Part shown: one piece after another, positions 7,154 to 44,494 of the stretch | How the letters are laid out: each line of letters opens with the position of its first letter | Position numbering within the stretch: the first letter of the stretch is position 1 | Source: an uncultured Gammaproteobacteria bacterium | GTDB lineage: Bacteria > Patescibacteriota > Microgenomatia > UBA8517 | Length of the DNA stretch: 64,000 bases | NCBI GenBank assembly: GCA_965231135.1 | Contig: OZ246419.1 | Coordinates: forward strand, 733,865 to 797,864 | Reading direction: 5' to 3' | Notes under the pieces: generated by a model | What the model saw: only the letters and a program-made list of their open reading frames with translations | What the model was told of the DNA's origin: nothing | The model's database searches: none | Translations under genes and position numbers: made by a program

Positions 7154-7195
7154 GAATTTTAATTCTGCGCGCAGAAGACTGCGGTAGAACTTAGA

Positions 7196-7225
7196 AAATC
7201 CCTCAAGAAATTGAGGGATTTTTAA
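7196..7225. terminator. Rho-independent, probably bidirectional, terminator between rplL and the convergent GATase1 gene
   Basis: aaatccctcaa-gaaa-ttgagggattt perfect 11-bp stem, followed by TTTTT on the + strand and TTTTCT on the - strand. Confidence 0.6.
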
Positions 7226-7228
7226 TGG

Positions 7229-8128
7229 TTATTGAGCATTTTGCCATGCAAAACGAAGAAAGTTTGATAGAATTATTTTTGCTTCATCGTTGTATGTTTC
7301 CCCTAAAGCTTTAATATCATCTATTTTTTTATTTTTCTTTTCCAATCTTTGTCTAACATCGTCTTTGTCTAAATAATTCATCATTTGTTCCCTGCTTTTT
7401 TCTGGATGAAATTGGAATCCATAGATTTTTCCAAGTTTAAATCCTTGAACTCCTCTTTCGTTTTCAAGCAGAACTTCACCGCCTTCAGGTAATTTAGTGA
7501 TAGTCATTTCGTGATCTTGAGGCACAAGAAACTCTTCAGGCAAGCCTCTTAAGACAGGATCTTCTCTGCTTCCTGTATAGCGTTTTACATAACTCCAACC
7601 TATTTCCCAGAAATTACTACCCTTTTGTGTTTTTAAATCTTTAAGTTGACCACCTAAAGCTTCGACAATTCCTTCTGCACCGAAGCAAATTCCAAGCAAT
7701 GGAATACGAGCATCGCGGATAGCATATACAAATTGATAAAATTCCTTTCTCCAGTCTTTTATAAGAACTCCTTTCTTAATCTCTCTTGTTTGGGGATTTT
7801 CGTGATCGATGACGCTTGGGCGAGCGATTAACTGACTTCCTGTAATAATAACTGCCTGATAATTATTCAATCTTTCGAAAGGAAGTAATAAATTGGCTTT
7901 GGTAACTGATTTATCTTTATCATCAGGGTGTTTTATTAAATCAATAACTTTTAGAGAAGCATTTTCGAGTATTCGTTTTTTATATTCCGTGTAGGTTTCA
8001 CCATTTTGTCTAGGAGTATCAAATAATCCTCCCGCAATGCTCACATACGGAGTTTGATCAACATTAAAATTGACAATAAGTACATTTGCTGGCCTTACAA
8101 TTTCTTTATCTTCTAGTTTCTCTGGCAT
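7229..8128 (-). CDS. Class-I glutamine amidotransferase-like / peptidase C26 (gamma-glutamyl hydrolase-like) protein
   Basis: Catalytic-triad signatures LLGICFGAEG (nucleophile Cys) and GFQFHPE (His-x-Glu); last gene of the ATP-grasp operon. Confidence 0.7.
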   Translation of the reverse strand: MPEKLEDKEIVRPANVLIVNFNVDQTPYVSIAGGLFDTPRQNGETYTEYKKRILENASLKVIDLIKHPDDKDKSVTKANLLLPFERLNNYQAVIITGSQLIARPSVIDHENPQTREIKKGVLIKDWRKEFYQFVYAIRDARIPLLGICFGAEGIVEALGGQLKDLKTQKGSNFWEIGWSYVKRYTGSREDPVLRGLPEEFLVPQDHEMTITKLPEGGEVLLENERGVQGFKLGKIYGFQFHPEKSREQMMNYLDKDDVRQRLEKKNKKIDDIKALGETYNDEAKIILSNFLRFAWQNAQ

Positions 8129-8132
8129 ACTC

Positions 8133-9020
8133 CTATTTTATCAAAGAATTGAGATATTTTTCTAATTCTGGTAATTCAGGAGAGATACTGGGGTCAAGAG
8201 TTAATCCTGGTCCTCTATTTATTTCAAAAACATAAACTTTTCCTTTTTTATCAATACAAATATCGACTCCAGAAATGTTTAAATCGACAGATTTTGTTCC
8301 TTGTATAGAATAATTTATTAATTCTTTAGAAATATTATTTTTATCTATCCAACCAGCAGAAGATTCTTCATCGTTTACTGAAATTTTGTTTTCAATAATT
8401 TTTCTAGTAGATTCTTCATGAATTCCAACAACTTCATTTCCCATTACAACAATTCGATATTCCTTATCTATTTCAACTTTTTCCTGGAATAAAAATCCGT
8501 TACTTTCATCTTTTTTAAGAAGTTTTTCGAAGTCTGCAATTTCGTTAATTATAAAAAGTCCATTTCTTTTTTGGCTCCATAAATTTTTAGCATAAATTGG
8601 AAAAGCAAAAGATTTCATAATTTCATCTTTTGAATTAATTATTTCTTCTCTGGAAAAATAAAAAGTATTAGGAACTGGAATATTCCCATATGCAATTAGA
8701 AGAAGATTGTTTAGTTTATCTTTGGAGGCGCCTACTTTTTCAAATGTTTTATCGATAAAAGGAATATTATTTTTTAAACAAAAAGTGGCAATTGATCCTG
8801 CCAGTGGAATATAATTTCGGGTTTGACGAAAATAGACAAGATCAAATTCCAACAAGTTTAAATCTCCAACAAAACATTCGATTTTTGAATCTATTATCGA
8901 TATTGATATTTCTGATAATTTTTTTAAAATAAATTTGTTATTTGAATTTTTATTTAAGTAATCGGTAATTTGATTATGTCTTGAAGTTATTTTATTAACC
9001 AAAATCAATATTTTTTTCAT
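8133..9020 (-). CDS. ATP-grasp ligase, divergent RimK-like paralog
   Basis: FPIYAKN (ATP-binding Lys), FQEKVE, YRIVVMGNEVVG, ISGVDICIDKKGKVYVFEINRGPGL (E-x-N Mg site). It lacks the DFRxN..GG motif of its neighbours. Confidence 0.65.
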   Translation of the reverse strand: MKKILILVNKITSRHNQITDYLNKNSNNKFILKKLSEISISIIDSKIECFVGDLNLLEFDLVYFRQTRNYIPLAGSIATFCLKNNIPFIDKTFEKVGASKDKLNNLLLIAYGNIPVPNTFYFSREEIINSKDEIMKSFAFPIYAKNLWSQKRNGLFIINEIADFEKLLKKDESNGFLFQEKVEIDKEYRIVVMGNEVVGIHEESTRKIIENKISVNDEESSAGWIDKNNISKELINYSIQGTKSVDLNISGVDICIDKKGKVYVFEINRGPGLTLDPSISPELPELEKYLNSLIK

Positions 9021-9895
9021 AAACTGACAAAATATTTAATAATTTCTGAAGCGATATTTTTATTTGTATATTTTTCCAATCCTTTAAATTGCGGGCCTAC
9101 ATTTACTTCTAATAAATAAGGCTTACCGTCAATGCCTATCATAATATCAACTCCTGCAATTTCAATTCCTGTTATTTTTGCAGCTTTTTGGGCAATTTCT
9201 TTGATTTCTTTATTTTTTTCTAAATCAAATATTTCTCCAGTTGCCCCTTGGGAAATATTATTTCTGAAATCGCCTTCCGCAGACTTTCTTTTCATTGCAG
9301 CAACAGCTTTAAAACCAACTGTAAAAATTCTCACATCACCGTCATTTGGAATAAATTCACGAAGTAGATATGTCTTCATTGGATTTTTGATCATAATATC
9401 TTTTCCTTCCTGAAAATTATTTATTAAAAACACACCTTTTCCTTGATGCATCTCAGAAATTTTCATGATTGCAGGTAATTTAAAGTTTTTTAACATTAAT
9501 TCAAGATTTTCTTCCGAATAAATTGAATATGTTTTTGGAGAGCGAATTTTATTTTCAAACTGTTTTAAGTAAAACCAACTCTGGATCGGATAATAATTAA
9601 AATTTGGATTTGCAACAACACTGTTTACAATTTTTGTTTTGGTGTTTTTTAATAAAAACTGGCATGCAACGAACCACTCGAGGCGCATTTTCGACTCGAC
9701 TCCGGCACAAAGATAAATCAAATCAAAATCAGAAAGAGATTTGCCGTTTATTGTAGGATTAAAAACTTCACCGTTAGTTTCTATAATTAAATCTTTTGAA
9801 TGACATCCTGTTACTTGATGGCCTAATTTTTGTGCTTCTTCCTGAAATCTAGTTATTTGACTTCCTTTAATTAAACCTACAATTAGAATTTTCAT
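9017..9895 (-). CDS. RimK-like ATP-grasp (alpha-L-glutamate ligase family)
   Basis: PAIMKISEMHQGKGVFLI, DVRIFTVGFKAVAAMKRKSAEGDFRNNISQGATGE, GVDIMIGIDGKPYLLEVNVGP. Confidence 0.75.
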   Translation of the reverse strand: MKILIVGLIKGSQITRFQEEAQKLGHQVTGCHSKDLIIETNGEVFNPTINGKSLSDFDLIYLCAGVESKMRLEWFVACQFLLKNTKTKIVNSVVANPNFNYYPIQSWFYLKQFENKIRSPKTYSIYSEENLELMLKNFKLPAIMKISEMHQGKGVFLINNFQEGKDIMIKNPMKTYLLREFIPNDGDVRIFTVGFKAVAAMKRKSAEGDFRNNISQGATGEIFDLEKNKEIKEIAQKAAKITGIEIAGVDIMIGIDGKPYLLEVNVGPQFKGLEKYTNKNIASEIIKYFVSL

Positions 9896-9898
9896 AAG

Positions 9899-10768
9899 TT
9901 AGCGGGCGTTTTTAATTGCATAATTTAAATATATTTTGGTTATATTTTCTCCAGTTGCCTTTTCCATTCCAACCATCCCAGGAGTGTGATTGACCTCCAA
10001 AATATAGTTTTTATTGTCTTTATCTATTAATACATCAACTCCCGCTACTTCAAGGCCAATTGCATCCATTGCATCTTTTGCTAGTTTCTTTAATTCAGGA
10101 GTTAGAGGGAACAGCTCAACAGAGCCGCCCAAGGAAAAGTTTGCTCTAAAATCCCCTGCTCTTGGAATTCTTCTCATACAATACATTTTTTCTCCAATTA
10201 CTAAAATTCTTAAATCGTATTTATAGTCAATAAAACCTTGAACAAGAATATTTTTTGCAGGATAATTTTCGCGGTCAAATTTATTTATAAAATTTACAAA
10301 TTCGCTATTGTCTTTTACAAGCCACACCTTTCCACCTTTGCCAGCTCTTGAGGATTTCATAACAAGCGGAAAACCCAATTTATCACCCAATCTATATAAA
10401 TCTTTGTATTCGCGAGTACTGAATGTGTCTGGGACAGGAATTTTATGAAGTATTAATTTCAAAATATCATATGACTTATTCATTGAGTATTTTTGAGCAA
10501 AAAGATTATTGTCAAATATTTTTGCTCTTCTATAGCCAAGATAGTCTTTTAAAGATTCAAGAGATTTCATTGTAGAGAATAGCCCGCGAATAATTACAAG
10601 ATCTGAATCCGGAATTTCCGGACTAAAGGAAAATTCGTGACCTTTTTTAAAAAATTTGAAAGAACTAAAATCGATTAATTTAAATTCGTGACCAAGAGCA
10701 AGCGATTCTTCTTTGATCCTTCTTACTTCATCCAAACTTGCCGCTGATGTAATTAAAGTTATTTTCAT
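9899..10768 (-). CDS. RimK-like ATP-grasp (alpha-L-glutamate ligase family)
   Basis: FPLVMKSSRAGKGGKVWLV, DLRILVIGEKMYCMRRIPRAGDFRANFSLGGSVE, GVDVLIDKDNKNYILEVNHTPG. Confidence 0.75.
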   Translation of the reverse strand: MKITLITSAASLDEVRRIKEESLALGHEFKLIDFSSFKFFKKGHEFSFSPEIPDSDLVIIRGLFSTMKSLESLKDYLGYRRAKIFDNNLFAQKYSMNKSYDILKLILHKIPVPDTFSTREYKDLYRLGDKLGFPLVMKSSRAGKGGKVWLVKDNSEFVNFINKFDRENYPAKNILVQGFIDYKYDLRILVIGEKMYCMRRIPRAGDFRANFSLGGSVELFPLTPELKKLAKDAMDAIGLEVAGVDVLIDKDNKNYILEVNHTPGMVGMEKATGENITKIYLNYAIKNAR

Positions 10769-12057
10769 CTTTTTTCAATCCATGGTTTTACTAAAAAGCC
10801 CTGCAGATCTGTTCTACCAATTAAAACTTTAAAAGTCAATTTGCTGCGATCGGAAACCCCCATTGTTGTTTTTATTCTTTTTCCTGCCAATCTTAATGAT
10901 ACATTAATAACAGGCCAATTGTTTTCTCCTAAAGCACTTAATTTTCTTCGATAAAATAAGATTTTTTCTTTCTCTAAAAGTCCTAATTTTTTGGCAAATT
11001 CTCTGTCAATTGAACTACTCCATGCTCCAGTATCTACTTTCGCTAAAACTTTAATCCAGTGGCCATTTGCATCTCTTACTTTAATTTCCTCAGACGCCCC
11101 AATCGTTAAAATACCATCTTTTGCGGCAACGCGATCTGCAAACCTTTCAGCAAAAAGAGCTTTGGCTATATTTACACCATGCTTTTCGTCGCGAACATCC
11201 AAATCTTCTACTCTATCTAATCTTTTTTTGAGGCCTGCCATATTGGCTAACTGAATTTGAAGACCAGGCCGGGCGTTTAATTCCAAAACCATTGGGCCTT
11301 TTTCAGGATCAATAACCATATCAACTCCTGCAAAGCCTAATCCTGAAACAATTGCAGTTTTTACAGCTATTTCCAAAACTTTTGTCCAGTCGGGAATTTT
11401 TATTCCGTGAAGCTTGTGATTTGTTTCCGGTTTAAATTTTATTAATTCTCCATGCCAAATTGCTTTTGTAGTAATTCCTGTTGCTATATCAACTCCTACT
11501 CCAATTGCTCCTTGGTGAAGATTTGCATGACCCCCAGACTCTTTTGTGGGAAGACGGAGCATTGCCATTACAGGAATTTTATTAAAGACAATTACGCGAA
11601 TATCAGGAGTTCCGCGATATGAAAATCTTCTGAAACTTTTATTTCTTCCGACATATTCCTGAACAAAAGCAACATCAGGCTCGTTTTTTAAACTATATGC
11701 GCCCTCTAAAATATCAAGCGTATGAAGTTTTAAATCCGCATCTGTAATTTCTTCACGCTGAGTTGTAAGCCAAACGTCTGGCTTTATTCTTTTTTTAACA
11801 ACAATAATTCCCTCACCTCCAAAGCCGCGGCTGGGCTTTAATGCAAAACTATCTGGAAGAGTTTTCCAATCGAAATCAAAAACTTCCTTTGCATCACGAA
11901 ATTTTTTGTAAACATCCGGGGTCGGAATATCTGCTTTTTTAAGAGTCTTTGCCATTTGCAGTTTTGAGTCAGCAATTCTTCTCGCTTTTGGTGAATTAAG
12001 CGGAGTTAAATATAATTGAGAACGGGCATTTAGCCCTAAAATTGATGAGACTTTCAT
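10765..12057 (-). CDS. Fusion protein: alpha-L-glutamate-ligase-related ATP-grasp (TIGR02291-like) N-terminal domain plus a C-terminal retropepsin-like aspartic protease domain (the so-called ATP-dependent zinc protease family)
   Basis: N-terminus ILGLNARSQLYLTPLNSPKARRIADSKL... and GGHANLHQGAIG match the RimK-related E-ligase family; C-terminus WIKVLAKVDTGAWSSSID carries a DTGA aspartyl-protease motif (nt ~11023-11034). Confidence 0.7.
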   Translation of the reverse strand: MKVSSILGLNARSQLYLTPLNSPKARRIADSKLQMAKTLKKADIPTPDVYKKFRDAKEVFDFDWKTLPDSFALKPSRGFGGEGIIVVKKRIKPDVWLTTQREEITDADLKLHTLDILEGAYSLKNEPDVAFVQEYVGRNKSFRRFSYRGTPDIRVIVFNKIPVMAMLRLPTKESGGHANLHQGAIGVGVDIATGITTKAIWHGELIKFKPETNHKLHGIKIPDWTKVLEIAVKTAIVSGLGFAGVDMVIDPEKGPMVLELNARPGLQIQLANMAGLKKRLDRVEDLDVRDEKHGVNIAKALFAERFADRVAAKDGILTIGASEEIKVRDANGHWIKVLAKVDTGAWSSSIDREFAKKLGLLEKEKILFYRRKLSALGENNWPVINVSLRLAGKRIKTTMGVSDRSKLTFKVLIGRTDLQGFLVKPWIEKR

Positions 12058-12866
12058 TAGCTTCTGATTAATTTTCTAAATCTCCAGAATTCTATAAAAC
12101 GAAGACCGACATATTTTCCTAAAATAAAATCAAAAATTGCAACACCTACAAGAAGAATTTCCGGATTTAGAATTGCAAATCTTTCAAAAGGGGCAAAAGA
12201 TAAAATTAAAAAACTTACAAAAGCCAAAATCAAAGTTTCTGTAGTTAAATTGATAGCTGTTTTGACTGACTTTCCAAGCTGAACTCTTATAAAATCTTCT
12301 GCAAGCAAAATCAAAATAAAAAGAGGCAAAACGGAGATATTCTCAAAATCAATGCCTCCAAAAACTGGAGCTAAAAATAAAACAAGAAGCACACAAACAA
12401 CAACTCCCCATAGAATAAAAGACATACGAGGAAGATACTGAAGATGAATTTTTAATTTGCGAAGAGCAAAACGAACAATACTTGCGATACCAATTATTAA
12501 TAAAAATAAACCAATTCCAAAAAGAGGGCCAATAGTTACGAACACAACCGATAAAGCTGCTGGTAAGAAAATTCCAAAGGAACGAACTCCAAGAAGATGT
12601 CTAACACCAGCAATAAAAGCGGTGACAACAGTTAATAATAGAAGAAGAGAAACTGTTTTTGCCGAAACTCCGCTTACAACAGCGCCGTGAATTACATATT
12701 TAATTGGATTAAGCCAAACATTACCAAGCTGCTGACTTTTTAGAACGGAATCAAGATTAACATTTTGCGATTGAAAGGATTGAATTGCAGGAAAATCAAA
12801 AACAAAAAGGCCCAAAAGGAAACCAAGAAAAGTTGCTGCAACAAGAATTAGCAGGAAATTCTTCAT
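12057..12866 (-). CDS. Polytopic (about 7-9 TM) membrane protein, 7TM-transglutaminase-associated type without the transglutaminase domain
   Basis: 269 aa, almost entirely hydrophobic helices; an acidic LLAEDFIRV segment inside the membrane region; its start ATG at 12057 is shared with the stop of the downstream ligase gene. Confidence 0.55.
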   Translation of the reverse strand: MKNFLLILVAATFLGFLLGLFVFDFPAIQSFQSQNVNLDSVLKSQQLGNVWLNPIKYVIHGAVVSGVSAKTVSLLLLLTVVTAFIAGVRHLLGVRSFGIFLPAALSVVFVTIGPLFGIGLFLLIIGIASIVRFALRKLKIHLQYLPRMSFILWGVVVCVLLVLFLAPVFGGIDFENISVLPLFILILLAEDFIRVQLGKSVKTAINLTTETLILAFVSFLILSFAPFERFAILNPEILLVGVAIFDFILGKYVGLRFIEFWRFRKLIRS

Positions 12867-12878
12867 GCATATATTATA

Positions 12879-13094
12879 CTATTCTTTATTTGTCATTCCT
12901 AGCATCCAGAGGACTGCTTCTTTTTTATAGCGACGATCACCGCGAGAATTTATTCGGATTGGTGTTAATTTGCCGCGTTTTCCCCATCTTTTGATGGTTA
13001 AAACTGAAACTCTTAGTAGATCTGCAACTTCTCTTACTGTTAAAAGATCTGGAAGGTCTTCTAACTTGATTTTCTTCTTTGTAGTTTGATCCAT
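12879..13094 (-). CDS. Small HTH DNA-binding protein (excisionase / MerR-type HTH_17-like)
   Basis: LTVREVADLLRVSVLTIKRWGKRGKLTPIRINSRGDRRYKKEAV helix-turn-helix pattern; first gene of the ATP-grasp operon. Confidence 0.7.
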   Translation of the reverse strand: MDQTTKKKIKLEDLPDLLTVREVADLLRVSVLTIKRWGKRGKLTPIRINSRGDRRYKKEAVLWMLGMTNKE

Positions 13095-13128: not shown

Positions 13129-13165
13129 TTAATCAGACTATAACTAAGGAGTGCAAGGACTGTCA

Positions 13166-13870
13166 ATGGGCAAATTTAATTGTTACAATCAATTTATGTT
13201 GCAATTTTTACAAAAACACAAGAAAGCAATTATTATTGTGGCTATTTTAATATTCACAACTATTTCTATTTGGTATTTGAACAGGCATCATGTGTTTAAT
13301 CGAAGAGAATTGCGAGAGTTGCAAAATAATATCAAATCTTATGGAAGCTTTTCTGCAGTGGCAATTATTGTTTTAGTTCTAATTAGTACACTTGTTCCTC
13401 CCCTTCCCATACCAGTACCGCTTGTGGAAATTGTTTGCGGACTGATTTTTGGTTTTATTCCCGGAATGATTATTAATTATTTGGCACAAATTATTTCTTC
13501 TTCAATTGCCTTTTATTTAGCGAGAATTTTAGGAAGAAAGTTTTTTAGAAAAATTTTGGATAACAAGATTTTCACGTCTTATAAAAAATATATTAACAAA
13601 AACGGCTCCGTGGCAGTTCTGACATTGCGGGCAACAATTGGTGCACCATTTAATATGGTGAGTTTTTTAGCTGGGCTCACTGAAATGAACTTCAAGAGTT
13701 TTCTAATTGCTACTCTACTCGGTTGCATCCCAGAAGTAATACTTTTTACTTTTATAGGAAATGCGTTACAAACATCTAGATTTAGAATCTCTTACGTATT
13801 TTTGTTTGTAATACTACTAGGAGGAGTTGGAATGCTTACAACTCTCTGGGTGTTAAGACGTAAAAAATAA
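13166..13870 (+). CDS. TVP38/TMEM64 (DedA/SNARE-associated) family membrane protein
   Basis: Multi-TM with ...AVLTLRATIGAPFNMVSFLAGLT... typical of DedA proteins; ATG at 13166 or 13196. Confidence 0.65.
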   Translation: MGKFNCYNQFMLQFLQKHKKAIIIVAILIFTTISIWYLNRHHVFNRRELRELQNNIKSYGSFSAVAIIVLVLISTLVPPLPIPVPLVEIVCGLIFGFIPGMIINYLAQIISSSIAFYLARILGRKFFRKILDNKIFTSYKKYINKNGSVAVLTLRATIGAPFNMVSFLAGLTEMNFKSFLIATLLGCIPEVILFTFIGNALQTSRFRISYVFLFVILLGGVGMLTTLWVLRRKK

Positions 13871-14988: not shown

Positions 14989-16227
14989 TTATGCAACGCG
15001 GTCTTTGAGTGCCTTATAATATTTAACTAAATATTCTTGGGCAAGATCCCAGTTGCCGACTTGTCTTTGGTTTTCAGCTAATACACGCAGATGTGCAGCT
15101 TTTTTGGCCTGAAATTCCGAAATGCGATATGTTTCTGCCAATAAATCAGTTTGTGCTTCTTCATCTGCTTTATTCTGCCAGGATTTTATTTCAAGAGATG
15201 CAACAATTGTTGGCTCAAAAGCTAATTTGACTTCATCTTTTATGAGTTTATAGAATTTTGCTAATTTAATTCCTGCCTTTTTCCAATCTTTTTGATCTCC
15301 TTCTGCAACTGCTCCGATCATGTAAATTGCTGCTTCTTTTGCAAGCTTAGTTGATAATCCAAATTGTTCTTTAATATGTTCATAAGCATATTCACTAAAC
15401 TTTTTTCCTTCTGGAATATTTTTTAATCTCCACCAATTGATTTCGAATTTGGCTGCAACTTCAGGACGAAATCTTAAATGATCTTCTTTATCGTTCCCCC
15501 CAAACCTTCTTCGACGCCTTGAATAATCTAAAATTGCATCGCGAAGTTTTTCTGGAGTAAAGTCTGGCAAATGATCTGCTTCCCAATAAGTTTCTGCATA
15601 TGCGGATTGCCACAAAAGCAAACCGCTTGTTCTTTGTTCTCCTGAAGTTCTAATTAATAGATCAACGTAAGGATAGGGCTGTCCTTTTGTATCTAAGTAT
15701 TTTTCAAATGTTTCTTTAGATATATCTTCAGGTTTGAGATTATCTTTAATCATATTTTGGGTTGCACGAATAATGTCATCATATCCTCCATGATCAAGAG
15801 CTATATTGCCAATAAAAGTTTTGTTATCTTTGGTTATTTCTTCCGCCTGCACTATTTTTTTAACTAAAGGCTTTGGTAAACGGTCTTTTCTTCCTAAATG
15901 AATTATTCTAACGTCTTCCTCCATTGCTTCTTTTAAATATTGGTCTATCAATCTTTCATAAAGCTTCATTAAATAAGCAATTTCTTTTGGAGTGCGATCC
16001 CAATTTTCTGTTGAAAAACCCCAAATAGTAAAAGTGTGAACTCCCAGCTGGCGCGAAGCTCGAGCAAGCTTTAAAACAGTATCAAAACCTTTTTTATGAC
16101 CTTCAAGAGTGTACAATCCCCGAGCGCGAGCCCAGCGACGATTGCCGTCTGGAACAATGGCAATGTGGTTTGGAACTAAAGTTCCTTTTGGGAGATTGAT
16201 TCTTGAATCAGCCATCTTCTTGGGCAT
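14989..16227 (-). CDS. uppS: Undecaprenyl-diphosphate synthase (cis-isoprenyl transferase) with a roughly 190-aa C-terminal extension
   Basis: HIAIVPDGNRRWA and DLLIRTSGEQRTSGLLLWQSAY signatures; start taken at MPKKMADSR (16227) to avoid overlapping the divergent NUDIX gene. Confidence 0.85.
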   Translation of the reverse strand: MPKKMADSRINLPKGTLVPNHIAIVPDGNRRWARARGLYTLEGHKKGFDTVLKLARASRQLGVHTFTIWGFSTENWDRTPKEIAYLMKLYERLIDQYLKEAMEEDVRIIHLGRKDRLPKPLVKKIVQAEEITKDNKTFIGNIALDHGGYDDIIRATQNMIKDNLKPEDISKETFEKYLDTKGQPYPYVDLLIRTSGEQRTSGLLLWQSAYAETYWEADHLPDFTPEKLRDAILDYSRRRRRFGGNDKEDHLRFRPEVAAKFEINWWRLKNIPEGKKFSEYAYEHIKEQFGLSTKLAKEAAIYMIGAVAEGDQKDWKKAGIKLAKFYKLIKDEVKLAFEPTIVASLEIKSWQNKADEEAQTDLLAETYRISEFQAKKAAHLRVLAENQRQVGNWDLAQEYLVKYYKALKDRVA

Positions 16228-16269
16228 GGAAATAATTATATCACAGCATGTCCATGTTATAATTTTAAA

Positions 16270-16710
16270 ATGCAACTTTTAGCTGGTGTTGCCATATTTA
16301 AAAATAATAAGGTTTTACTCTTAAAAAACGTAGGCGGCGGCGATCAAAATGATAAATGGGGTCCACCAGCTGGACACGGTGAAGCAAACGAAACAACAGA
16401 AGAAACAGCTATTCGTGAAGCTAAAGAAGAAACAAATCTAGATGTGGAACTTTTAGGAATTATACAAGTTGGATATTTTAACTATCATGCAAAAGATTAT
16501 TTATATGTTTTTTATTTAGCTAAAGCCAAAGATTTATCCAAAATAAATCTACAGAAAGAAGAGGTATCTGAATACATTTGGGCAAGTAAACAAGATTTAT
16601 TGAAAAATAAATATGAGTTTAGAAAAGAGTTTTTAAAAGAACCAATTTTACTTTCATTCGAACAAAAACCTTCGAAAAACAATTTATTTAAAATATATAC
16701 TGTAAAATAG
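16270..16710 (+). CDS. NUDIX hydrolase
   Basis: Nudix box GPPAGHGEANETTEETAIREAKEETNL (GX5EX7REUXEEXGU). Confidence 0.8.
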   Translation: MQLLAGVAIFKNNKVLLLKNVGGGDQNDKWGPPAGHGEANETTEETAIREAKEETNLDVELLGIIQVGYFNYHAKDYLYVFYLAKAKDLSKINLQKEEVSEYIWASKQDLLKNKYEFRKEFLKEPILLSFEQKPSKNNLFKIYTVK

Positions 16711-38323: not shown

Positions 38324-41300
38324 ATGAGTAAACTGCCCCGAAATAAATATATCTCCATTAATGAAGCTGCAATAAAACTTGGAGTATCTACTAAAACCTT
38401 AAGAAGATGGGAAGTTGCTGGAAAACTTATTGCAGTAAGAACTAATGGCGGCCACAGAAGATATGAAATTTCAAAACTTACAGAGTTAAAGATAAATGGT
38501 TTTAAGACGCCAAGAAAAGAATATATAAAGAAAATTGTTGTTAATCAAACTGTTAGTGATACCCCGAAAATAATTAAGATAGATAATATAGTAGAACCTC
38601 TTAAAATAAACCCTAATATCATCACTGAAGCATTACCTACTCCAATAGATATATATAATGCCCCAACGCTTGCACCTCAGCAAAAAAATATTCTAAAAAT
38701 AGTTGGTTTTTCTTTTTTTGGTTTTATTTTGATTGCAGGAGTATTTAAAATTTCTCCCGCAGTAATCTCCGCAACGAACTTATTCAAAGCTAATGCGGAT
38801 AATATTGCGGTAAATTACTTTCCAGGTATGCCTGGTGCTGTTAAAAGTTTTTTAAGCTCCAGGAATAATAATTTTGCGGATAATAAAGATGTGGCCTCAA
38901 AATTTGGACAAAATGTCCAAGTTTTGGCAGCAGAGACAAAAGCTAATGTCCCGGTTTTTAATGTAAACATTGAGTCTTCTTTTAAACAAGTTGCGGATTT
39001 TGTAAAGGGTTTAACATCAACCGATGTTTCAACTGGAACGCTGGAAGCATCAGACAATGCAACTTTTGCAAAAAATGTTGATATATCAGGCGATTTGACT
39101 TCATCAAGTGCAACATTTAATTTATTACCAAAAAACGTAACATCTCTTAATATCGGACTTACCTCAACTACAACAAGTATTTCAGCAACAACCGGTACTA
39201 CTACTATTAATAATGATTTAAATGTTAAAGGTGCCACCGCTCTTTCTGGTGCTCTTAATGTCGGTGGTAAGATTACAGGAAGCGGAGATTTAGCAATTTC
39301 GGGAGCAAGCGTATTGTCTGGAGCTTTAAATGTTTCTGGAGTGACGACACTTGCATCAGACCTCTCAGCGGCAGGAAACGCAACATTTGGCAATATTACT
39401 AAAGTTAATGGAGTGACTTATTCATTTCCTACAACTCAAGGAGCAGGCGGATCTACGTTAACTAATGACGGTTCGGGAAATCTCAGTTGGGTTAGCGGAA
39501 GTGGCAGTGGAACAATCGGTTTTTGGACAAGAACTGGAACAATATTAACACCAGCTACTGAAGGAGACACAATAGCAACTACCGGACAAATTGGAGCAGG
39601 AACAACAACACCAAGCTACCAGCTTGATATACAAAACCCAATTTCAGCCAACAACGGTATTCTTGCCAACTTTGCTTTATCAAATTCAAATACCGGAGCT
39701 GGAATCATTACAAACGGTATAAACGTATCTGCAACCGGGTCTATTCCAGCGAGCGGAACTAATACGAATAACCTTATTAATCTTTCAGCAATAACTGCTG
39801 GAAGTAATACTTTTAATGGAATAAATTTTGGTTCAGGTTTATCAAACTATATAAATAGTACAAATTTCATTGTCACTGCCGCTGGAGCAGAGACCCTTAA
39901 TTCTTCTTTGGTTGCAGTTGGAGTAAATGCCCAAAGCGGACTTCTTCAAGGCACAGGTGGACTAACTTTAACTGGGACAACAAATATAAATAGTACAGGA
40001 GTTGCAAATACTACTGTTGGTAATACAAGTGGAACGCTTGCTTTATCTTCTAACGCTTTTAACCTTGATACTTCAGGAAATATAACAGGAGTTCCAAGCT
40101 TAGATACAATCAACGTTTCATCTACTGCCTTAACATTTGCAGGAGCTGGAACAATTGATTCAGGAACAGCAAACGCTCTCAATCTTGGGACGGGAAATAA
40201 CGCAAAAACCATAAACATTGGAACAGGAAATGCTGGCAATATTATTAATATAGGAACAAATGATACAACCGCTGATGCAATTAATATTGCAAGCGCAAAA
40301 GACACCACTACACTTGCAGGCAACATTAGTCTTACTAATTTATCACTTGGCACTGGAAGTGCTTTGTGTTTAGATGGATCAAACAATTTAGTAACATGTA
40401 CTACTGGAACAGGCGGTATTTCTGGAAGCGGTGCAAGCGGACAAATTGCATATTATAACGGGGCAAGTAGCATTACAGGGAATAATAGTTTTTTCTGGAA
40501 TACGGCAACCACACAGCTCGGAATCGGAACAAATTCAACAACAGCTGGAGTTACTATTGCTGAAAATAGCGGTGACTTAATTGATGCTGGAACAACATCA
40601 AGCACTAAATTTACTCTTGATAATTCTGGAAACATTTTAGTTTCTCCTTCAACAAGATATGATACATTAACTTCCGGAACTCTTGGCGTCGGAACAACAA
40701 ACGCCACAACAGTAAACGTAGGAAACCTGAGCTCAACTACAAATTTAATTGGGGCAACAAATATTAATACAACAGGAAGCGGAAATACAACGATCGGCAA
40801 CGGAAGCGGAACTGTGGCTTTAAATCTGGGATCTGATGCAACTGGAGATATTTATTACAGAAATTCCGGTGGAACCTTAAGTAGACTAGGGATTGGATCG
40901 TCAGGACAAACATTAACAGTTTCAGCTGGAATCCCAAGCTGGGTTGGAGGCTCTGGAGGGACTGGAAGCTCGGGTTTTTGGAGTAGGACATCAGGGGGTG
41001 TTTTATCACCTGCAACAGCAACAGATACATTCAATCTAGCTCCTAATACAACAAACGGAACTGGAGTGAACGCTGGATTTAATTTGCAAGCAAACTCATT
41101 AACAAGTGGAAACGCTGTTGACATATCAAGCAGCTCAATAACAAGCGGTAATTTATTATCACTTTCTTCTACTTCAACGGCTTTTACATCTGGAGCAATT
41201 GCAAACCTCAGCTGGTCACCAAGTGCTTCAACAACTGCAACTGGAGATTTATTAAAACTTAATGTTGGTTCTAATGGAATTTTAGGTAATATTCTTGATG

Positions 41301-44300
41301 TACAAAATAATGGTTCAACTATATTTGGAGTGAGCCAAACTCAAATAATAGCTGCTCTTCCAACACAGTTCACTGCAGCTGGAGATGTTGGATTTGCATA
41401 CGATGTTAATTTTACAAATCCGGTTGCAAGTAATATCAAGTCCAGTTCTAATCTTAATATTGCTGCTGGCGAAACATTTAATTCATCAGATCTGACTTTG
41501 ACAACATATAATGCCGGAAATATTTTACTAAATACAGGTACAAGCTCGACAGGAAACGGGAAAGTTGGAATTGGGCCGTCAGTTACCCCCACTTCCTTAC
41601 TTACAGTAAACAATGCAAATGAATTATCAAACATAGGACAATCATTAGCTTTATTTAATCAGACTGAAAATCAAGATATTATGACCGCCAGCAATTCAGG
41701 GACAACAAGATGGACACTTGGATATCAAGGAAATATAACGGGAACTGCGGTAAATACCAGCGGCAACAGCTATAGTTACACGAATACAGCACTTAATACA
41801 ACAAGCGCAAATCTTCAGGCACTGGCATTTACAAATGCTGCATCAAGCGGAAGCATAACAGTAAGCGGAGAAAATATAACTGCAACAGGAACTGCAACTT
41901 CTGGAACAAACACTAACAATCTAGTAAATTTAAGTGTTGCAGCTGCGGCAAGTAATAACACATTTAATGGTATTAATTTTGGAAGCAATTTAACTAACTA
42001 TATAAATGGAACAAATTGGGTGGTAACAGCAGCAGGAAATGAAACGATAGCAGGAATAAATGTCACAGGACTTACAGCAAACTCAGCTGTATATACTGAT
42101 GGAAGCAAGAATTTAACAACATCAGCCCCAAGCTCTGGAGCTCTTGGATATTGGACTAGAACAGGAACTACACTCTCACCTACTACAAGCGGTGATGCTG
42201 TGACAACTTCTGGAAATATTTCTACAACTGGGTCAGGAACTATAACTAGCGCGTCAGATCTGGCGGTTAACGGATCAAATTTCACAAGTAGTTCAAGCTC
42301 GTTTAACCTACTGAATTCAACCCCAACAACTATTAATTTTGGGGGAAATGCTACAACTGCACTTAATATCGGCAATGGAAATAGTGCCTACACTGCAATA
42401 AACTTTGGAAGTGGAACCGGAGGCAATACAATTGGTATTGGAAATGGAGCTAACACAGGAGCGCAAACGATTAATATCGCTGCTGGAGCAGCAGGGGCAA
42501 ATTCAACAGTAAATATTTTATCAGGAATTGCAACTTCCGGGACACAGACACTTAATCTTGGAACAGGAGCTTCTGCAAAAACAGTAAACATCGGTAATTC
42601 AACAGGCGCGACAGCACTGAATTTCACAAGCGGTACAGGAGCTCAAACATTTGCATCAAGTGTTGTAACTGGCACGACAACCTCTGGAGCATTTGCATTC
42701 AATGCAAACTCTTTGACAACTGGCGATGGACTTTATCTTAATTCGTCTAGCATAACAACAGGCAATCTGCTAAATATCACATCTACCTCCACTGCTTTCA
42801 CTTCAGGTAATTTGGCAAGCATTTATTGGAACCCAGGATCTTCTACTACTGCAACTGGAGATTTATTAAAACTTAATGTTGGTTCTAATGGAATTTTAGG
42901 TAATATTCTTGATGTACAAAATAATGGTTCAACTATATTTGGAGTAAGCCAAACTCAAATTTCAAATAATTTACCAGTTTCATTTAATGCTCCTGGAGAT
43001 ATTGTTGATGCATATGACTTTTCATTTACGAATCCAGTTTCAAGCAACATAAAATCTTCTGCTCCGCTTACTATTGCAGCTGGCGAAATATTTAATTCTT
43101 CTAATTTGACTTTAACTACATATAATCTTGGAAATATATTATTAAATAGTGGAACAAGTACGGGTGGAAACGGACTTGTTGGAATTGGCCCTTCAGTATC
43201 TCCTACTTCACTTTTAACAGTTGATAATACCAATGAATTGTCGACAATCGGCCAATCTCTTGTACTTCTTAATCAAACAGAAAGCCAAGATATTTTAACA
43301 GCAAGCAATTCAGGAACAACAAGATTTAAGATAAATTCTGCTGGAAACACATTTACAACTCTAAGAAGTACAGGAACTGCAGCACTTTGTCATACTACAA
43401 ACGGAGCAGGATTTGATGAAATAACAGATTGTTCTGGAACTCCAGCTGCAGATTATGCTGAGTTTTATCCAACAGACGGAAGCGTTGATTATGGCGATAT
43501 CGTTGCTCCAAGCAGCCAAACCGTAACAACTAAAGTAAGCGACGGTCAAGGAGGAATAATTACCGGACAAACACAGCAAACTTCAGTTTTAACAAAGTCT
43601 AGTTTAGCTTATCAAGGAAATGTGATCGGAATAGTATCGAATAACTATAATGACTTTACATCAACCGGATACAATATAGTTGATCCTTCAAATAATCCAA
43701 AGCCAGTTGCTCTTAATGGACGTGTTCCCGTAAAAATTGCAACAGATTCTCCTGAGATTGCTCCAGGAGATTATCTTACAACTAGCGATCAACCTGGACG
43801 CGCAACTAAAGCTACACAAGCCGGAAGAGTTATTGGTATGGCACTTGAAAACTGGAGCTCTTCAAGCGGCAAAGATACAGTATTGGTTTTTGTAAATAAT
43901 ACCTGGTACGATCCTAACGCTGATGCAATCGCTGCAACAGGAAGCGCACAACTAAACAACATTGCATTAATGCTTCAAGATAGCTTTACAGCAAGCGATA
44001 GCGGAATTATTGCAAACTTACACGAGCTTGATACTGCAAAATTGAATGTACTTGGAGATACGACTTTGGGAGATACAGTTGTAAACGGCAAGCTTAATGT
44101 TGGCGGATTGACATTTGATGATACTAATCAATCAATAAATGCAATAGGCGTTTTGAAAATTCAAGACTTAGCTTTGGGAAATGTTGAATTTATGAACGGA
44201 CTGATAACTTTTGATACAAACGGAAATGCAAAGTTCCAATCTGTTACTGCTAATAAATATAATGTTGCTGGAACATCGGCTGGAACAGGCACAATTACAG

Positions 44301-44494
44301 CTGGAGCAACAAATGTTATTATTAATACTAATGCTGTTAACAACAGCTCTTTAATCTTTGTAACCGCAAGCACAGCAACAAGCAAGGTTTTAGCGGTAAC
44401 AACAAAGGTTCAAGGAACAAGTTTTACAGTTTCGATTCCGACAGCAGACATCAATAATATTAATTTCAATTGGTGGATTGTTGACAAACAATAA
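38324..44494 (+). CDS. Giant (2056 aa) membrane-anchored repetitive Ser/Thr/Gly/Asn-rich protein with an N-terminal cytoplasmic HTH (excisionase/MerR-type) domain, one TM helix, and a long beta-helix-like repeat region
   Basis: HTH YISINEAAIKLGVSTKTLRRWEVAGKLIAVRTNGGHRRYEI (nt ~38345-38500); TM ILKIVGFSFFGFILIAGVF (nt ~38690-38747); internal duplicated modules; a non-repetitive Cys-containing C-terminal domain (~43.3-44.5 kb). Confidence 0.75.
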   Translation: MSKLPRNKYISINEAAIKLGVSTKTLRRWEVAGKLIAVRTNGGHRRYEISKLTELKINGFKTPRKEYIKKIVVNQTVSDTPKIIKIDNIVEPLKINPNIITEALPTPIDIYNAPTLAPQQKNILKIVGFSFFGFILIAGVFKISPAVISATNLFKANADNIAVNYFPGMPGAVKSFLSSRNNNFADNKDVASKFGQNVQVLAAETKANVPVFNVNIESSFKQVADFVKGLTSTDVSTGTLEASDNATFAKNVDISGDLTSSSATFNLLPKNVTSLNIGLTSTTTSISATTGTTTINNDLNVKGATALSGALNVGGKITGSGDLAISGASVLSGALNVSGVTTLASDLSAAGNATFGNITKVNGVTYSFPTTQGAGGSTLTNDGSGNLSWVSGSGSGTIGFWTRTGTILTPATEGDTIATTGQIGAGTTTPSYQLDIQNPISANNGILANFALSNSNTGAGIITNGINVSATGSIPASGTNTNNLINLSAITAGSNTFNGINFGSGLSNYINSTNFIVTAAGAETLNSSLVAVGVNAQSGLLQGTGGLTLTGTTNINSTGVANTTVGNTSGTLALSSNAFNLDTSGNITGVPSLDTINVSSTALTFAGAGTIDSGTANALNLGTGNNAKTINIGTGNAGNIINIGTNDTTADAINIASAKDTTTLAGNISLTNLSLGTGSALCLDGSNNLVTCTTGTGGISGSGASGQIAYYNGASSITGNNSFFWNTATTQLGIGTNSTTAGVTIAENSGDLIDAGTTSSTKFTLDNSGNILVSPSTRYDTLTSGTLGVGTTNATTVNVGNLSSTTNLIGATNINTTGSGNTTIGNGSGTVALNLGSDATGDIYYRNSGGTLSRLGIGSSGQTLTVSAGIPSWVGGSGGTGSSGFWSRTSGGVLSPATATDTFNLAPNTTNGTGVNAGFNLQANSLTSGNAVDISSSSITSGNLLSLSSTSTAFTSGAIANLSWSPSASTTATGDLLKLNVGSNGILGNILDVQNNGSTIFGVSQTQIIAALPTQFTAAGDVGFAYDVNFTNPVASNIKSSSNLNIAAGETFNSSDLTLTTYNAGNILLNTGTSSTGNGKVGIGPSVTPTSLLTVNNANELSNIGQSLALFNQTENQDIMTASNSGTTRWTLGYQGNITGTAVNTSGNSYSYTNTALNTTSANLQALAFTNAASSGSITVSGENITATGTATSGTNTNNLVNLSVAAAASNNTFNGINFGSNLTNYINGTNWVVTAAGNETIAGINVTGLTANSAVYTDGSKNLTTSAPSSGALGYWTRTGTTLSPTTSGDAVTTSGNISTTGSGTITSASDLAVNGSNFTSSSSSFNLLNSTPTTINFGGNATTALNIGNGNSAYTAINFGSGTGGNTIGIGNGANTGAQTINIAAGAAGANSTVNILSGIATSGTQTLNLGTGASAKTVNIGNSTGATALNFTSGTGAQTFASSVVTGTTTSGAFAFNANSLTTGDGLYLNSSSITTGNLLNITSTSTAFTSGNLASIYWNPGSSTTATGDLLKLNVGSNGILGNILDVQNNGSTIFGVSQTQISNNLPVSFNAPGDIVDAYDFSFTNPVSSNIKSSAPLTIAAGEIFNSSNLTLTTYNLGNILLNSGTSTGGNGLVGIGPSVSPTSLLTVDNTNELSTIGQSLVLLNQTESQDILTASNSGTTRFKINSAGNTFTTLRSTGTAALCHTTNGAGFDEITDCSGTPAADYAEFYPTDGSVDYGDIVAPSSQTVTTKVSDGQGGIITGQTQQTSVLTKSSLAYQGNVIGIVSNNYNDFTSTGYNIVDPSNNPKPVALNGRVPVKIATDSPEIAPGDYLTTSDQPGRATKATQAGRVIGMALENWSSSSGKDTVLVFVNNTWYDPNADAIAATGSAQLNNIALMLQDSFTASDSGIIANLHELDTAKLNVLGDTTLGDTVVNGKLNVGGLTFDDTNQSINAIGVLKIQDLALGNVEFMNGLITFDTNGNAKFQSVTANKYNVAGTSAGTGTITAGATNVIINTNAVNNSSLIFVTASTATSKVLAVTTKVQGTSFTVSIPTADINNINFNWWIVDKQ
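41235..41346 (+). repeat. 112-nt direct repeat (copy 1) inside the giant gene, part of a roughly 1.6-kb diverged internal duplication
   Basis: Identical to 42849-42960 except one mismatch (gtgagcc vs gtaagcc); encodes GDLLKLNVGSNGILGNILDVQNNGSTIFGVSQTQI. Confidence 0.85.
42849..42960 (+). repeat. 112-nt direct repeat (copy 2)
   Basis: See copy 1; the flanking protein sequence is about 70% identical over roughly 500 aa. Confidence 0.85.

Follow-up and report, generated by a model that had tools for sequence, protein, structure and literature searches.

A Predicted Ligase-Protease Fusion Protein in an rloABC-Like Operon of Patescibacteria

The Fusion Gene and Its Two Domains

We analyzed a 64-kilobase (kb) stretch of contig OZ246419.1 (hereafter "the window") and in particular a gene on its minus strand, at 10765–12057, that appears to join two enzymes in a single chain. 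The gene is an intact open reading frame (ORF) of 430 amino acids that begins with ATG and has no interruption. Its product is predicted to consist of an N-terminal RloC-type ATP-grasp ligase domain (residues 1 to approximately 305; 11143–12057, minus strand), a short linker (residues approximately 306–316; 11110–11142, minus strand), and a C-terminal retropepsin-like aspartic protease domain (residues 317–430; 10768–11109, minus strand). The catalytic motif of the latter, D342-T343-G344-A345, lies at 11023–11034 on the same strand and reads DTGA in the translation. An earlier note on this DNA had claimed one 430 amino acid ORF carrying a ligase N-terminus and a VDTGAW protease core; this is borne out, and the peptides that it quoted (ILGLNARSQLYLTPLNSPKARRIADSKL, GGHANLHQGAIG and VDTGAW) are all present. 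Both domains have counterparts in the Pseudomonas rloABC system, which comprises the secreted retropepsin-like protein RloA, the seven-transmembrane (7TM) protein RloB with its inactive transglutaminase domain, and RloC, an ATP-grasp protein of the cytoplasm (Lormand et al. 2025, mBio; PMC12239564).

The ligase domain is recognized by family models, by structure comparison and by its invariant residues. The Pfam family PF14397 (ATPgrasp_ST) matches residues 12–284 with 222 bits (E-value 1.2e-65; gathering score 31.4). TIGR02291 ("alpha-L-glutamate ligase-like"), by far the top NCBIfam match of the fusion protein, covers residues 3–290 with 275.6 bits (E-value 4.5e-82) and falls short of the 314.2 bits set as its equivalog cutoff. 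On the same protein, TIGR00768, the model of the RimK family, gives 54 bits against a cutoff of 143. When the AlphaFold model of the full-length protein is searched with Foldseek, the top PDB matches are RimK, ArgX and LysX. In an alignment with 34 relatives, K74, D246, E259 and N261 are invariant, and the last three align with the GVD and EVN motifs of Escherichia coli RimK. Judged by its sequence, the domain is a member of the RloC-type ATP-grasp family. We know of no measured ligase activity or amino-acid specificity for Pseudomonas RloC itself.

Single-sequence searches with the C-terminal domain against Pfam, NCBIfam and PDB return nothing above threshold. PF05618 scores 20.7 bits on the window sequence (residues approximately 317–425) against a gathering score of 27, and there are further sub-threshold matches to PF13650, TIGR03698 and the RloA3 and RloA2 models (RloA3: 23 bits, cutoff 210). 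Most close relatives of the fusion, on the other hand, have a precomputed PF05618 match. A profile of the domain built from 21 relatives finds the structures of P. aeruginosa RloA2 (9g59; E-value 1.4e-5) and P. fluorescens RloA (9g58; E-value 1.7e-4), and also matches those of ApRick and Lpg0085. The AlphaFold model of the domain alone (approximately 115 residues) has a predicted local distance difference test score (pLDDT) of 90.2. Its 50 best Foldseek matches in PDB are all retropepsin folds (50/50), among them ApRick, RloA2, RloA, Lpg0085, the RVP domains of Ddi1, and retroviral proteases. The D342-T343-G344-A345 motif is invariant in the 34 aligned relatives, so the catalytic aspartate context for which the C-terminal domain was to be checked is present; a retropepsin-like GR-x-DL motif near the C-terminus of the fusion is conserved in the same alignment. 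We conclude that the domain is, as predicted from profile and structure model, a retropepsin fold with the catalytic D-T/S-G-A motif. Both domain identities proposed in the earlier note hold, the ligase through PF14397 and TIGR02291 and the protease through the invariant DTGA, the domain profile and the retropepsin matches of Foldseek. There is no second retropepsin copy in the 64-kb window.

Two basic residues of the protease domain bear on its substrate. K340, which stands two residues before D342, and R404, the arginine of a "DRS" motif, are both invariant in the 34 relatives. We assigned equivalents of the RloA residues K46, R114 and R137 by our own residue counting on the profile alignment, not from a checked RloA alignment; counted in this way, K340 corresponds to K46 and R404 to R137, both of which bind polyglutamate in RloA. 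With the equivalence taken at that level, the invariance of K340 and R404 supports an acidic substrate.

The full-length AlphaFold model has a mean pLDDT of 78. Between the domains, at residues 304–315, pLDDT falls below 50, which suggests that a linker of about 12 residues is flexible, and on contacts between ligase and protease the model (predicted template modelling score 0.66) gives nothing usable. The fused protease has no signal peptide: the domain is internal and follows an ATP-grasp domain whose N-terminus is not hydrophobic. This absence and the position behind a domain that requires ATP suggest that the protease is cytoplasmic. In its location it would then resemble not RloA but RimB, which binds RimK and removes RimK-added glutamates from RpsF (Little et al. 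2025, J Biol Chem; PMC11957791).

Conservation of the Fusion

The earlier note had called for a survey of whether the fusion recurs in related genomes, and the architecture proves to be conserved. A homology search gives more than 120 clusters of relatives (64–76% identity, 426–454 amino acids, 95–100% query coverage), most of which have precomputed matches to both PF05618 and PF14397. The window protein itself is recorded in NCBI under a Patescibacteria metagenome-assembled genome with a contig of 810 kb. In a scan of one genome per GTDB species, at least 549 of the genomes have a gene for a relative of the fusion. From these we kept 80 loci with 40–67% identity, to which all locus counts out of 80 refer. 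They match the fusion to about residue 424, apart from one that is truncated at a contig end. By our own ORF calling, both domains lie in one ORF at 79 of the 80 loci; at the remaining one (L011) a frameshift splits the ORF inside the ATP-grasp domain, away from the domain junction. Among the 34 aligned relatives, the ligase shares on average 73% of its residues with the window protein, the linker 63% and the protease 56%.

The window derives from a metagenome-assembled genome, and one may ask whether an assembly join or a sequencing frameshift merged two adjacent genes. This candidate explanation is rejected by the recurrence. More than 120 independent clusters share a collinear architecture of 426–470 amino acids, as do 79 of 80 separately assembled species genomes, and the alignment of the 34 relatives crosses the domain junction without gaps or stops. 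Because the same architecture recurs across independent clusters and genomes, the fusion is not an assembly join, and we give an artefact practically no weight. As far as sequence comparison can tell, the fusion is genuine and anciently conserved across Patescibacteria.

By record title, the 80 loci come from Woesebacteria, Microgenomates, Moranbacteria, Parcubacteria/Paceibacteria and Saccharibacteria. We note that many records bearing the operon (L001, L003, L004, L006, L012 and others) are titled "uncultured Gammaproteobacteria," "Pseudomonadales," "Bdellovibrionales" or "Micavibrio." These records show 41–67% identity and synteny with the Patescibacteria loci (30–54% GC), and their titles look like placeholders or mistakes.

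The Operon and Its Neighborhood

The fusion gene lies in a minus-strand cluster with the order helix-turn-helix (HTH) gene, 7TM gene, fusion gene, three RimK-family ligase genes, and amidotransferase-like gene. The 7TM membrane partner (12057–12866, minus strand; 269 amino acids; PF14402) resembles the 7TM half of RloB. The stop codon of its gene overlaps the ATG of the fusion by 1 nucleotide (TAATG), and the stop codon of the fusion overlaps the start of the first RimK paralogue by 4 nucleotides (ATGA). From this layout the operon is predicted to be translationally coupled. A PF14402 7TM gene lies directly upstream of the fusion on the same strand at 78 of the 80 loci, and one to three RimK-family ligases follow downstream at about 50 of them, which together argue for a compact rlo-like operon.

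All three ligase paralogues lie on the minus strand. Paralogue 1 (9899–10768; 289 amino acids) matches PF08443 (E-value 3.8e-32) and just passes the RimK family model TIGR00768 (144.4 bits; cutoff 143.4). Paralogue 2 (9017–9895; 292 amino acids) matches PF08443 with an E-value of 3.9e-33. Paralogue 3 (8133–9020; 295 amino acids) is a divergent RimK/R2K-type ATP-grasp protein (PF08443, E-value 1.7e-13; PF18299 R2K_2, E-value 2.4e-6). At Moranbacteria-type loci (L035:9390–11330, L036, and L048:9387–11165), we observed double-length RimK-family proteins of 592–646 amino acids downstream of the fusion; the one in L035 has two ATP-grasp stretches and the one in L048 a DUF3541-like C-terminal region.

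The first gene of the cluster (12879–13094, minus strand) encodes a small MerR/excisionase-type HTH protein of 71 amino acids with matches to PF13411, PF12728 and the BldC family. Twelve Woesebacteria-like loci and locus L081 have a close homologue (E-values 1e-30 to 1e-36) upstream of their 7TM gene. L081, from a relative with 73% identity, is fully syntenic with the window over UppS, HTH gene, 7TM gene, fusion, three RimK genes and rplL. The best sigma-70-like promoter match, TTGACA-18-TATAGT (11 of 12 positions), lies 5' of the HTH gene at 13137–13166 on the minus strand, and a terminator-like 13-bp hairpin lies between the converging ends of the operon and rplL at 7194–7223; both are consensus matches only. 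No Rfam family is matched around the operon. Elsewhere in the window, an ORF of approximately 2056 amino acids (38324–44494, plus strand) has a weak match to the HTH query only.

The last gene of the operon (7229–8128, minus strand) encodes a putative class-I glutamine amidotransferase or peptidase C26-like protein of 299 amino acids (PF00117, E-value 2.8e-16; PF07722, 30.5 bits against 20.5), the translation of which shows GICFG and HPE motifs. We considered it as a conserved operon member and rejected this: it turned up at none of the 80 related loci, and in L081 a methyltransferase stands in its place. Its absence from the 80 loci suggests a variable accessory. A role of the gamma-glutamyl hydrolase type for this putative protein would fit an operon that ligates glutamate.

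Two further genes lie upstream of the operon. One (14989–16275, minus strand) encodes a protein of 428 amino acids that resembles undecaprenyl-diphosphate synthase (UppS) and has a C-terminal extension of approximately 180 amino acids of unassigned nature. The other (13151–13870, plus strand) encodes a DedA/VTT-domain membrane protein with a weak match to the model of the undecaprenyl-phosphate transporter UptA. The UppS neighbor is also present in L081, and together with the DedA/VTT protein it hints at a cell-envelope context.

The 7TM Partner and Alternative Fusions of the Same Modules

The 7TM partner scores 65.2 bits with PF14402 over residues 71–266 (gathering score 25). The NCBIfam RloB model aligns only through its positions 301–507 of 508, with 54 bits against a cutoff of 900. 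Since this covers the membrane half alone, the N-terminal periplasmic transglutaminase domain of RloB is absent from the 269 amino acid protein.

When the C-terminal protease domain was searched alone against 1.84 billion representative proteins, 431 relatives were found at an E-value of 1e-3 or less. They include full-length fusions, fragments and standalone proteins, plus a class of proteins of 350–420 amino acids. In all six single-domain proteins tested from this class, the retropepsin precedes a PF14402 7TM domain, that is, the protease is joined to the membrane partner. Examples of retropepsin-7TM proteins are P0164, P0172, P0176, P0183, P0191, P0214 and P0124, and loci L082:2275–4370 and L083:1631–3726; P0124 has two tandem retropepsin domains ahead of the 7TM region. 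A hydrophobic N-terminal signal or anchor precedes the retropepsin in all four sequences inspected (P0164, P0172, P0176 and P0124), and the retropepsin occupies the place of the periplasmic transglutaminase domain in RloB. In two independent contigs, the P0164 gene is followed by an overlapping gene for a standalone ATPgrasp_ST protein.

A third arrangement is found in records labelled Saccharibacteria. Here a triple fusion of 756–800 amino acids has the order ATPgrasp_ST, retropepsin, PF08014 (L045:3474–5876, plus strand; L076:7983–10250, plus strand; protein P0235). Pfam names the PF08014 MATCAP family from the microtubule-associated tyrosine carboxypeptidase. A 7TM_transglut protein of 516–521 amino acids is encoded upstream in L045:1870–3420 and L076:6434–7999, and another in L073:1392–2948; all three have an N-terminal PKD domain in place of the inactive transglutaminase domain of Pseudomonas RloB. 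As a side observation, the triple fusion adds a predicted carboxypeptidase to the ligase and the endopeptidase of a single chain, which recalls the enzymes that write and erase tubulin tails.

The modules are thus repeatedly joined in different combinations, a comparative signature which suggests that they form one complex or at least a cooperating machine.

Discussion

The analysis yields an intact fusion, two recognizable folds with conserved catalytic residues, a conserved neighborhood and alternative fusions of the same modules. The best overall explanation, which we hold to be somewhat better than an even bet, is that the protein is a bifunctional enzyme of Patescibacteria. An RloC-type ligase would be linked to an endopeptidase of the RimB/RloA kind, in a compact rloABC-like operon, and the endopeptidase would trim acidic chains made by the ligase. 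The ligase domain would lie at the cytoplasmic face of the membrane, docked on the 7TM partner, and would spend ATP on extending a primer or a growing chain with amino acids, most probably acidic ones such as glutamate. Retropepsins are obligate dimers. Given this and the dimeric structures of RloA, the retropepsin domains of two fusion subunits might pair to form one active site. That site would cut the acidic chain and so limit its length, release it or recycle it, as RimB does for RimK. The 7TM protein would serve as the anchor of the complex and perhaps also as the route by which the product crosses the membrane. The extra RimK paralogues may add further residues.

The earlier note had proposed that ligation and proteolysis act on the same substrate in one complex. 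Such an arrangement fits what is known of RimB and RimK in the paralogous Rim system, where RimB not only removes the added glutamates but also stimulates poly-alpha-glutamate synthesis (Little et al. 2025; PMC11957791). It also fits the experiments on RloA, which cuts runs of at least eight glutamates; an rloA1-3 triple mutant has osmotic, antibiotic, biofilm and shape defects that are suppressed when rloB or rloC is deleted as well, although the joint action of RloA, RloB and RloC has been shown only genetically (Lormand et al. 2025; PMC12239564). The alternative fusions described above agree with one complex as well; that the two domains share a substrate here is something we infer.

Several observations weigh against the trimming enzyme as we have drawn it. 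The fusion scores below the curated cutoffs of both TIGR02291 and PF05618, and it is therefore not an orthologue-level match to RloC or RloA. The position counted as R114 of RloA, a strong polyglutamate binder, is W381 (nucleotides approximately 10915–10917) in the fusion and its nearest relatives and R in most others, so the specificity may differ. Similarly, H177 (nucleotides approximately 11527–11529), in the ligase motif GGRANLHQGA, aligns with the arginine of the "FRSNLH" motif of RimK; the fusion and several close relatives have histidine here, where most have Arg. Among the ORFs of the 64-kb window, none has a run of glutamates or ends in an acidic C-terminal tail, as an encoded substrate might. 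The "sugar-transfer associated" Pfam name of PF14397 and the UppS and DedA/VTT neighbors would also fit a non-protein acceptor in the cell envelope. Finally, the fused protease would lie on the side of the membrane opposite to that of RloA and the retropepsin-7TM fusions, which makes it unsafe to transfer the Pseudomonas function. Apart from their bearing on the mechanism, W381 and H177 together may mark a subclade with altered specificity.

Three other accounts deserve weighing against the bifunctional enzyme. The two proteins might be fused only for equal co-expression, in which case the retropepsin would excise itself at the linker and the enzymes would then act apart. Retroviral proteases and the rickettsial retropepsin ApRick do process themselves from larger precursors, the linker is predicted to be flexible (pLDDT below 50 at residues 304–315), and an acidic stretch, VEDLDVRDE (residues approximately 284–292), stands just before it. 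However, the linker contains no glutamate run of the length that RloA or RimB needs (at least eight for RloA; Lormand et al. 2025; PMC12239564), the natural RimBK hybrid of Desulfotalea psychrophila was purified as a hybrid with protease activity (Little et al. 2025; PMC11957791), and no computed result here favors cleavage. Self-excision is in our opinion quite unlikely. We would place slightly less faith still in a non-catalytic module, i.e., a retropepsin fold that only dimerises or holds the acceptor chain for the ligase and hydrolyses nothing. Retropepsin folds can serve mainly in binding (the RVP domains of Ddi1 are among the fold matches), W381 replaces a substrate-binding arginine, and the rlo system already includes an inactivated peptidase fold in the transglutaminase domain of RloB (Lormand et al. 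2025; PMC12239564). Yet the invariance of DTGA, K340 and R404 in the 34 relatives is hard to explain without catalysis, and in RimBK the homologous domain has protease activity (Little et al. 2025; PMC11957791).

The remaining account concerns the acceptor: the ligase or ligases would build a stem of amino acids on an envelope precursor linked to a lipid or a sugar, rather than on a protein or free polyglutamate, and the protease would edit this peptide stem. Such a role would accord with the Pfam name of PF14397 ("sugar-transfer associated ATP-grasp"), with the UppS fusion and the DedA/VTT protein next to the operon, and with the genes for UppS, a polyprenyl synthase, WecG and MreB in L081. 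Four consecutive ATP-grasp ligases resemble a stepwise peptide assembly, and in Pseudomonas the phenotypes of rlo relate to the shape of the cells, their survival under hypo-osmotic conditions and their sensitivity to beta-lactams (Lormand et al. 2025; PMC12239564). Against this, the operon contains no glycosyltransferase, the neighborhood outside the core from the HTH gene to the RimK genes was compared in one syntenic locus only, and the sole biochemistry for the protease family is the cleavage of alpha-linked polyglutamate (Little et al. 2025, PMC11957791; Lormand et al. 2025, PMC12239564). We regard an envelope precursor as unlikely.

For the trimming enzyme, the two locations of the protease are suggestive. 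If the fused protease is cytoplasmic, the same three modules are found with an internal protease here and with an external one in the case of RloA and the retropepsin-7TM fusions. One possibility is that the protease can reach its target chain from both sides, for instance while the 7TM protein exports it; the other is that the protease has taken on a different role. The first of these would make the target a membrane-spanning acidic chain. It is tempting to go one step further. The ligase-made acidic chain might cross the membrane through the 7TM protein, PF14402 serving as the export or synthase platform of a hitherto unrecognized pathway that secretes poly-alpha-amino acids. In Patescibacteria, with their minimal genomes, such a pathway might serve to make or reshape a polyanion on the cell surface, the length of which the synthase itself would control. 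We offer this as a speculation whose chances of being right are rather low.

In Pseudomonas, the rlo system has effects on antibiotic tolerance, on biofilms, on the shape of the cells and on how they survive osmotic stress. The present loci extend rlo-like systems to a phylum from which they had not been reported. The fusions add comparative evidence that ligase, protease and 7TM protein act as one physical machine. The partner of the protease varies: it is the ligase in Patescibacteria and the 7TM protein in other lineages, with a MATCAP-type carboxypeptidase added in Saccharibacteria. They also raise a testable puzzle, namely, why a protease is able to sit on either side of the membrane. For biochemical work the patescibacterial version should be simpler, with one soluble bifunctional protein and a bare 7TM partner.

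Comparison with Known Systems

A close parallel in gene content is rloABC. In both systems a single operon provides an RloC-type ATP-grasp protein (TIGR02291/PF14397), a retropepsin-like DTG protease akin to PF05618, and a 7TM protein with PF14402, and the fused protease keeps K340 and R404, which are counted as K46 and R137 of RloA. The two systems also differ. Ligase and protease form one polypeptide here, whereas they are separate in rloABC; RloA is secreted, while the fused protease lacks a signal peptide and is probably cytoplasmic; the 7TM partner lacks the periplasmic inactive transglutaminase domain of RloB; and one to three additional RimK-family ligases are present. The hosts differ as well, since the published RloB is reported to be 96% proteobacterial (Lormand et al. 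2025; PMC12239564) and the loci described here belong to Patescibacteria, with scores below the equivalog cutoffs.

A further analogy is the code of tubulin tails, in which ATP-grasp enzymes (TTL/TTLL ligases) add residues to a chain end and peptidases (MATCAP and other carboxypeptidases) remove them. In the saccharibacterial relatives, a PF08014 MATCAP-family domain follows the retropepsin domain. The likeness does not go beyond function: a MATCAP domain is missing from the window protein, and no acceptor resembling tubulin is known.

A close parallel in protein architecture is RimBK. The earlier note had held that ligase and protease are separate genes in described cassettes, which overlooks a published natural hybrid: in DP2392 of D. 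psychrophila, RimB is N-terminal to RimK and the hybrid is proteolytically active, and RimBK occurs mainly in Flavobacteriales and Rhodobacterales (Little et al. 2025; PMC11957791). Like the fusion described here, RimBK combines a retropepsin-like glutamate-trimming protease and an ATP-grasp alpha-L-glutamate ligase in a single cytoplasmic chain, and it provides a precedent for proteolytic activity in such a fusion. What remains of the claim is the particular form found here. The order is protease-ligase in RimBK and ligase-protease in our protein; the ATP-grasp domain belongs to the RimK family in the former and to the RloC/ATPgrasp_ST family in the latter; RimBK has no 7TM partner, whereas the present fusion has one; and the phylum is another. 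The reversed order, the other ATP-grasp family, the 7TM partner and the different host range suggest an independent fusion event. In a literature search with the Pfam and TIGRFAM families and with Patescibacteria and RimK, we found no paper that describes this fusion, although the comparative-genomics work on ATP-grasp amidoligases by Iyer et al. (2009, Mol Biosyst) may already mention it. The joining of a ligase to a retropepsin as such has thus been published with RimBK, and the RloC-type, ligase-first version is an undescribed variant of the Rlo and Rim systems.

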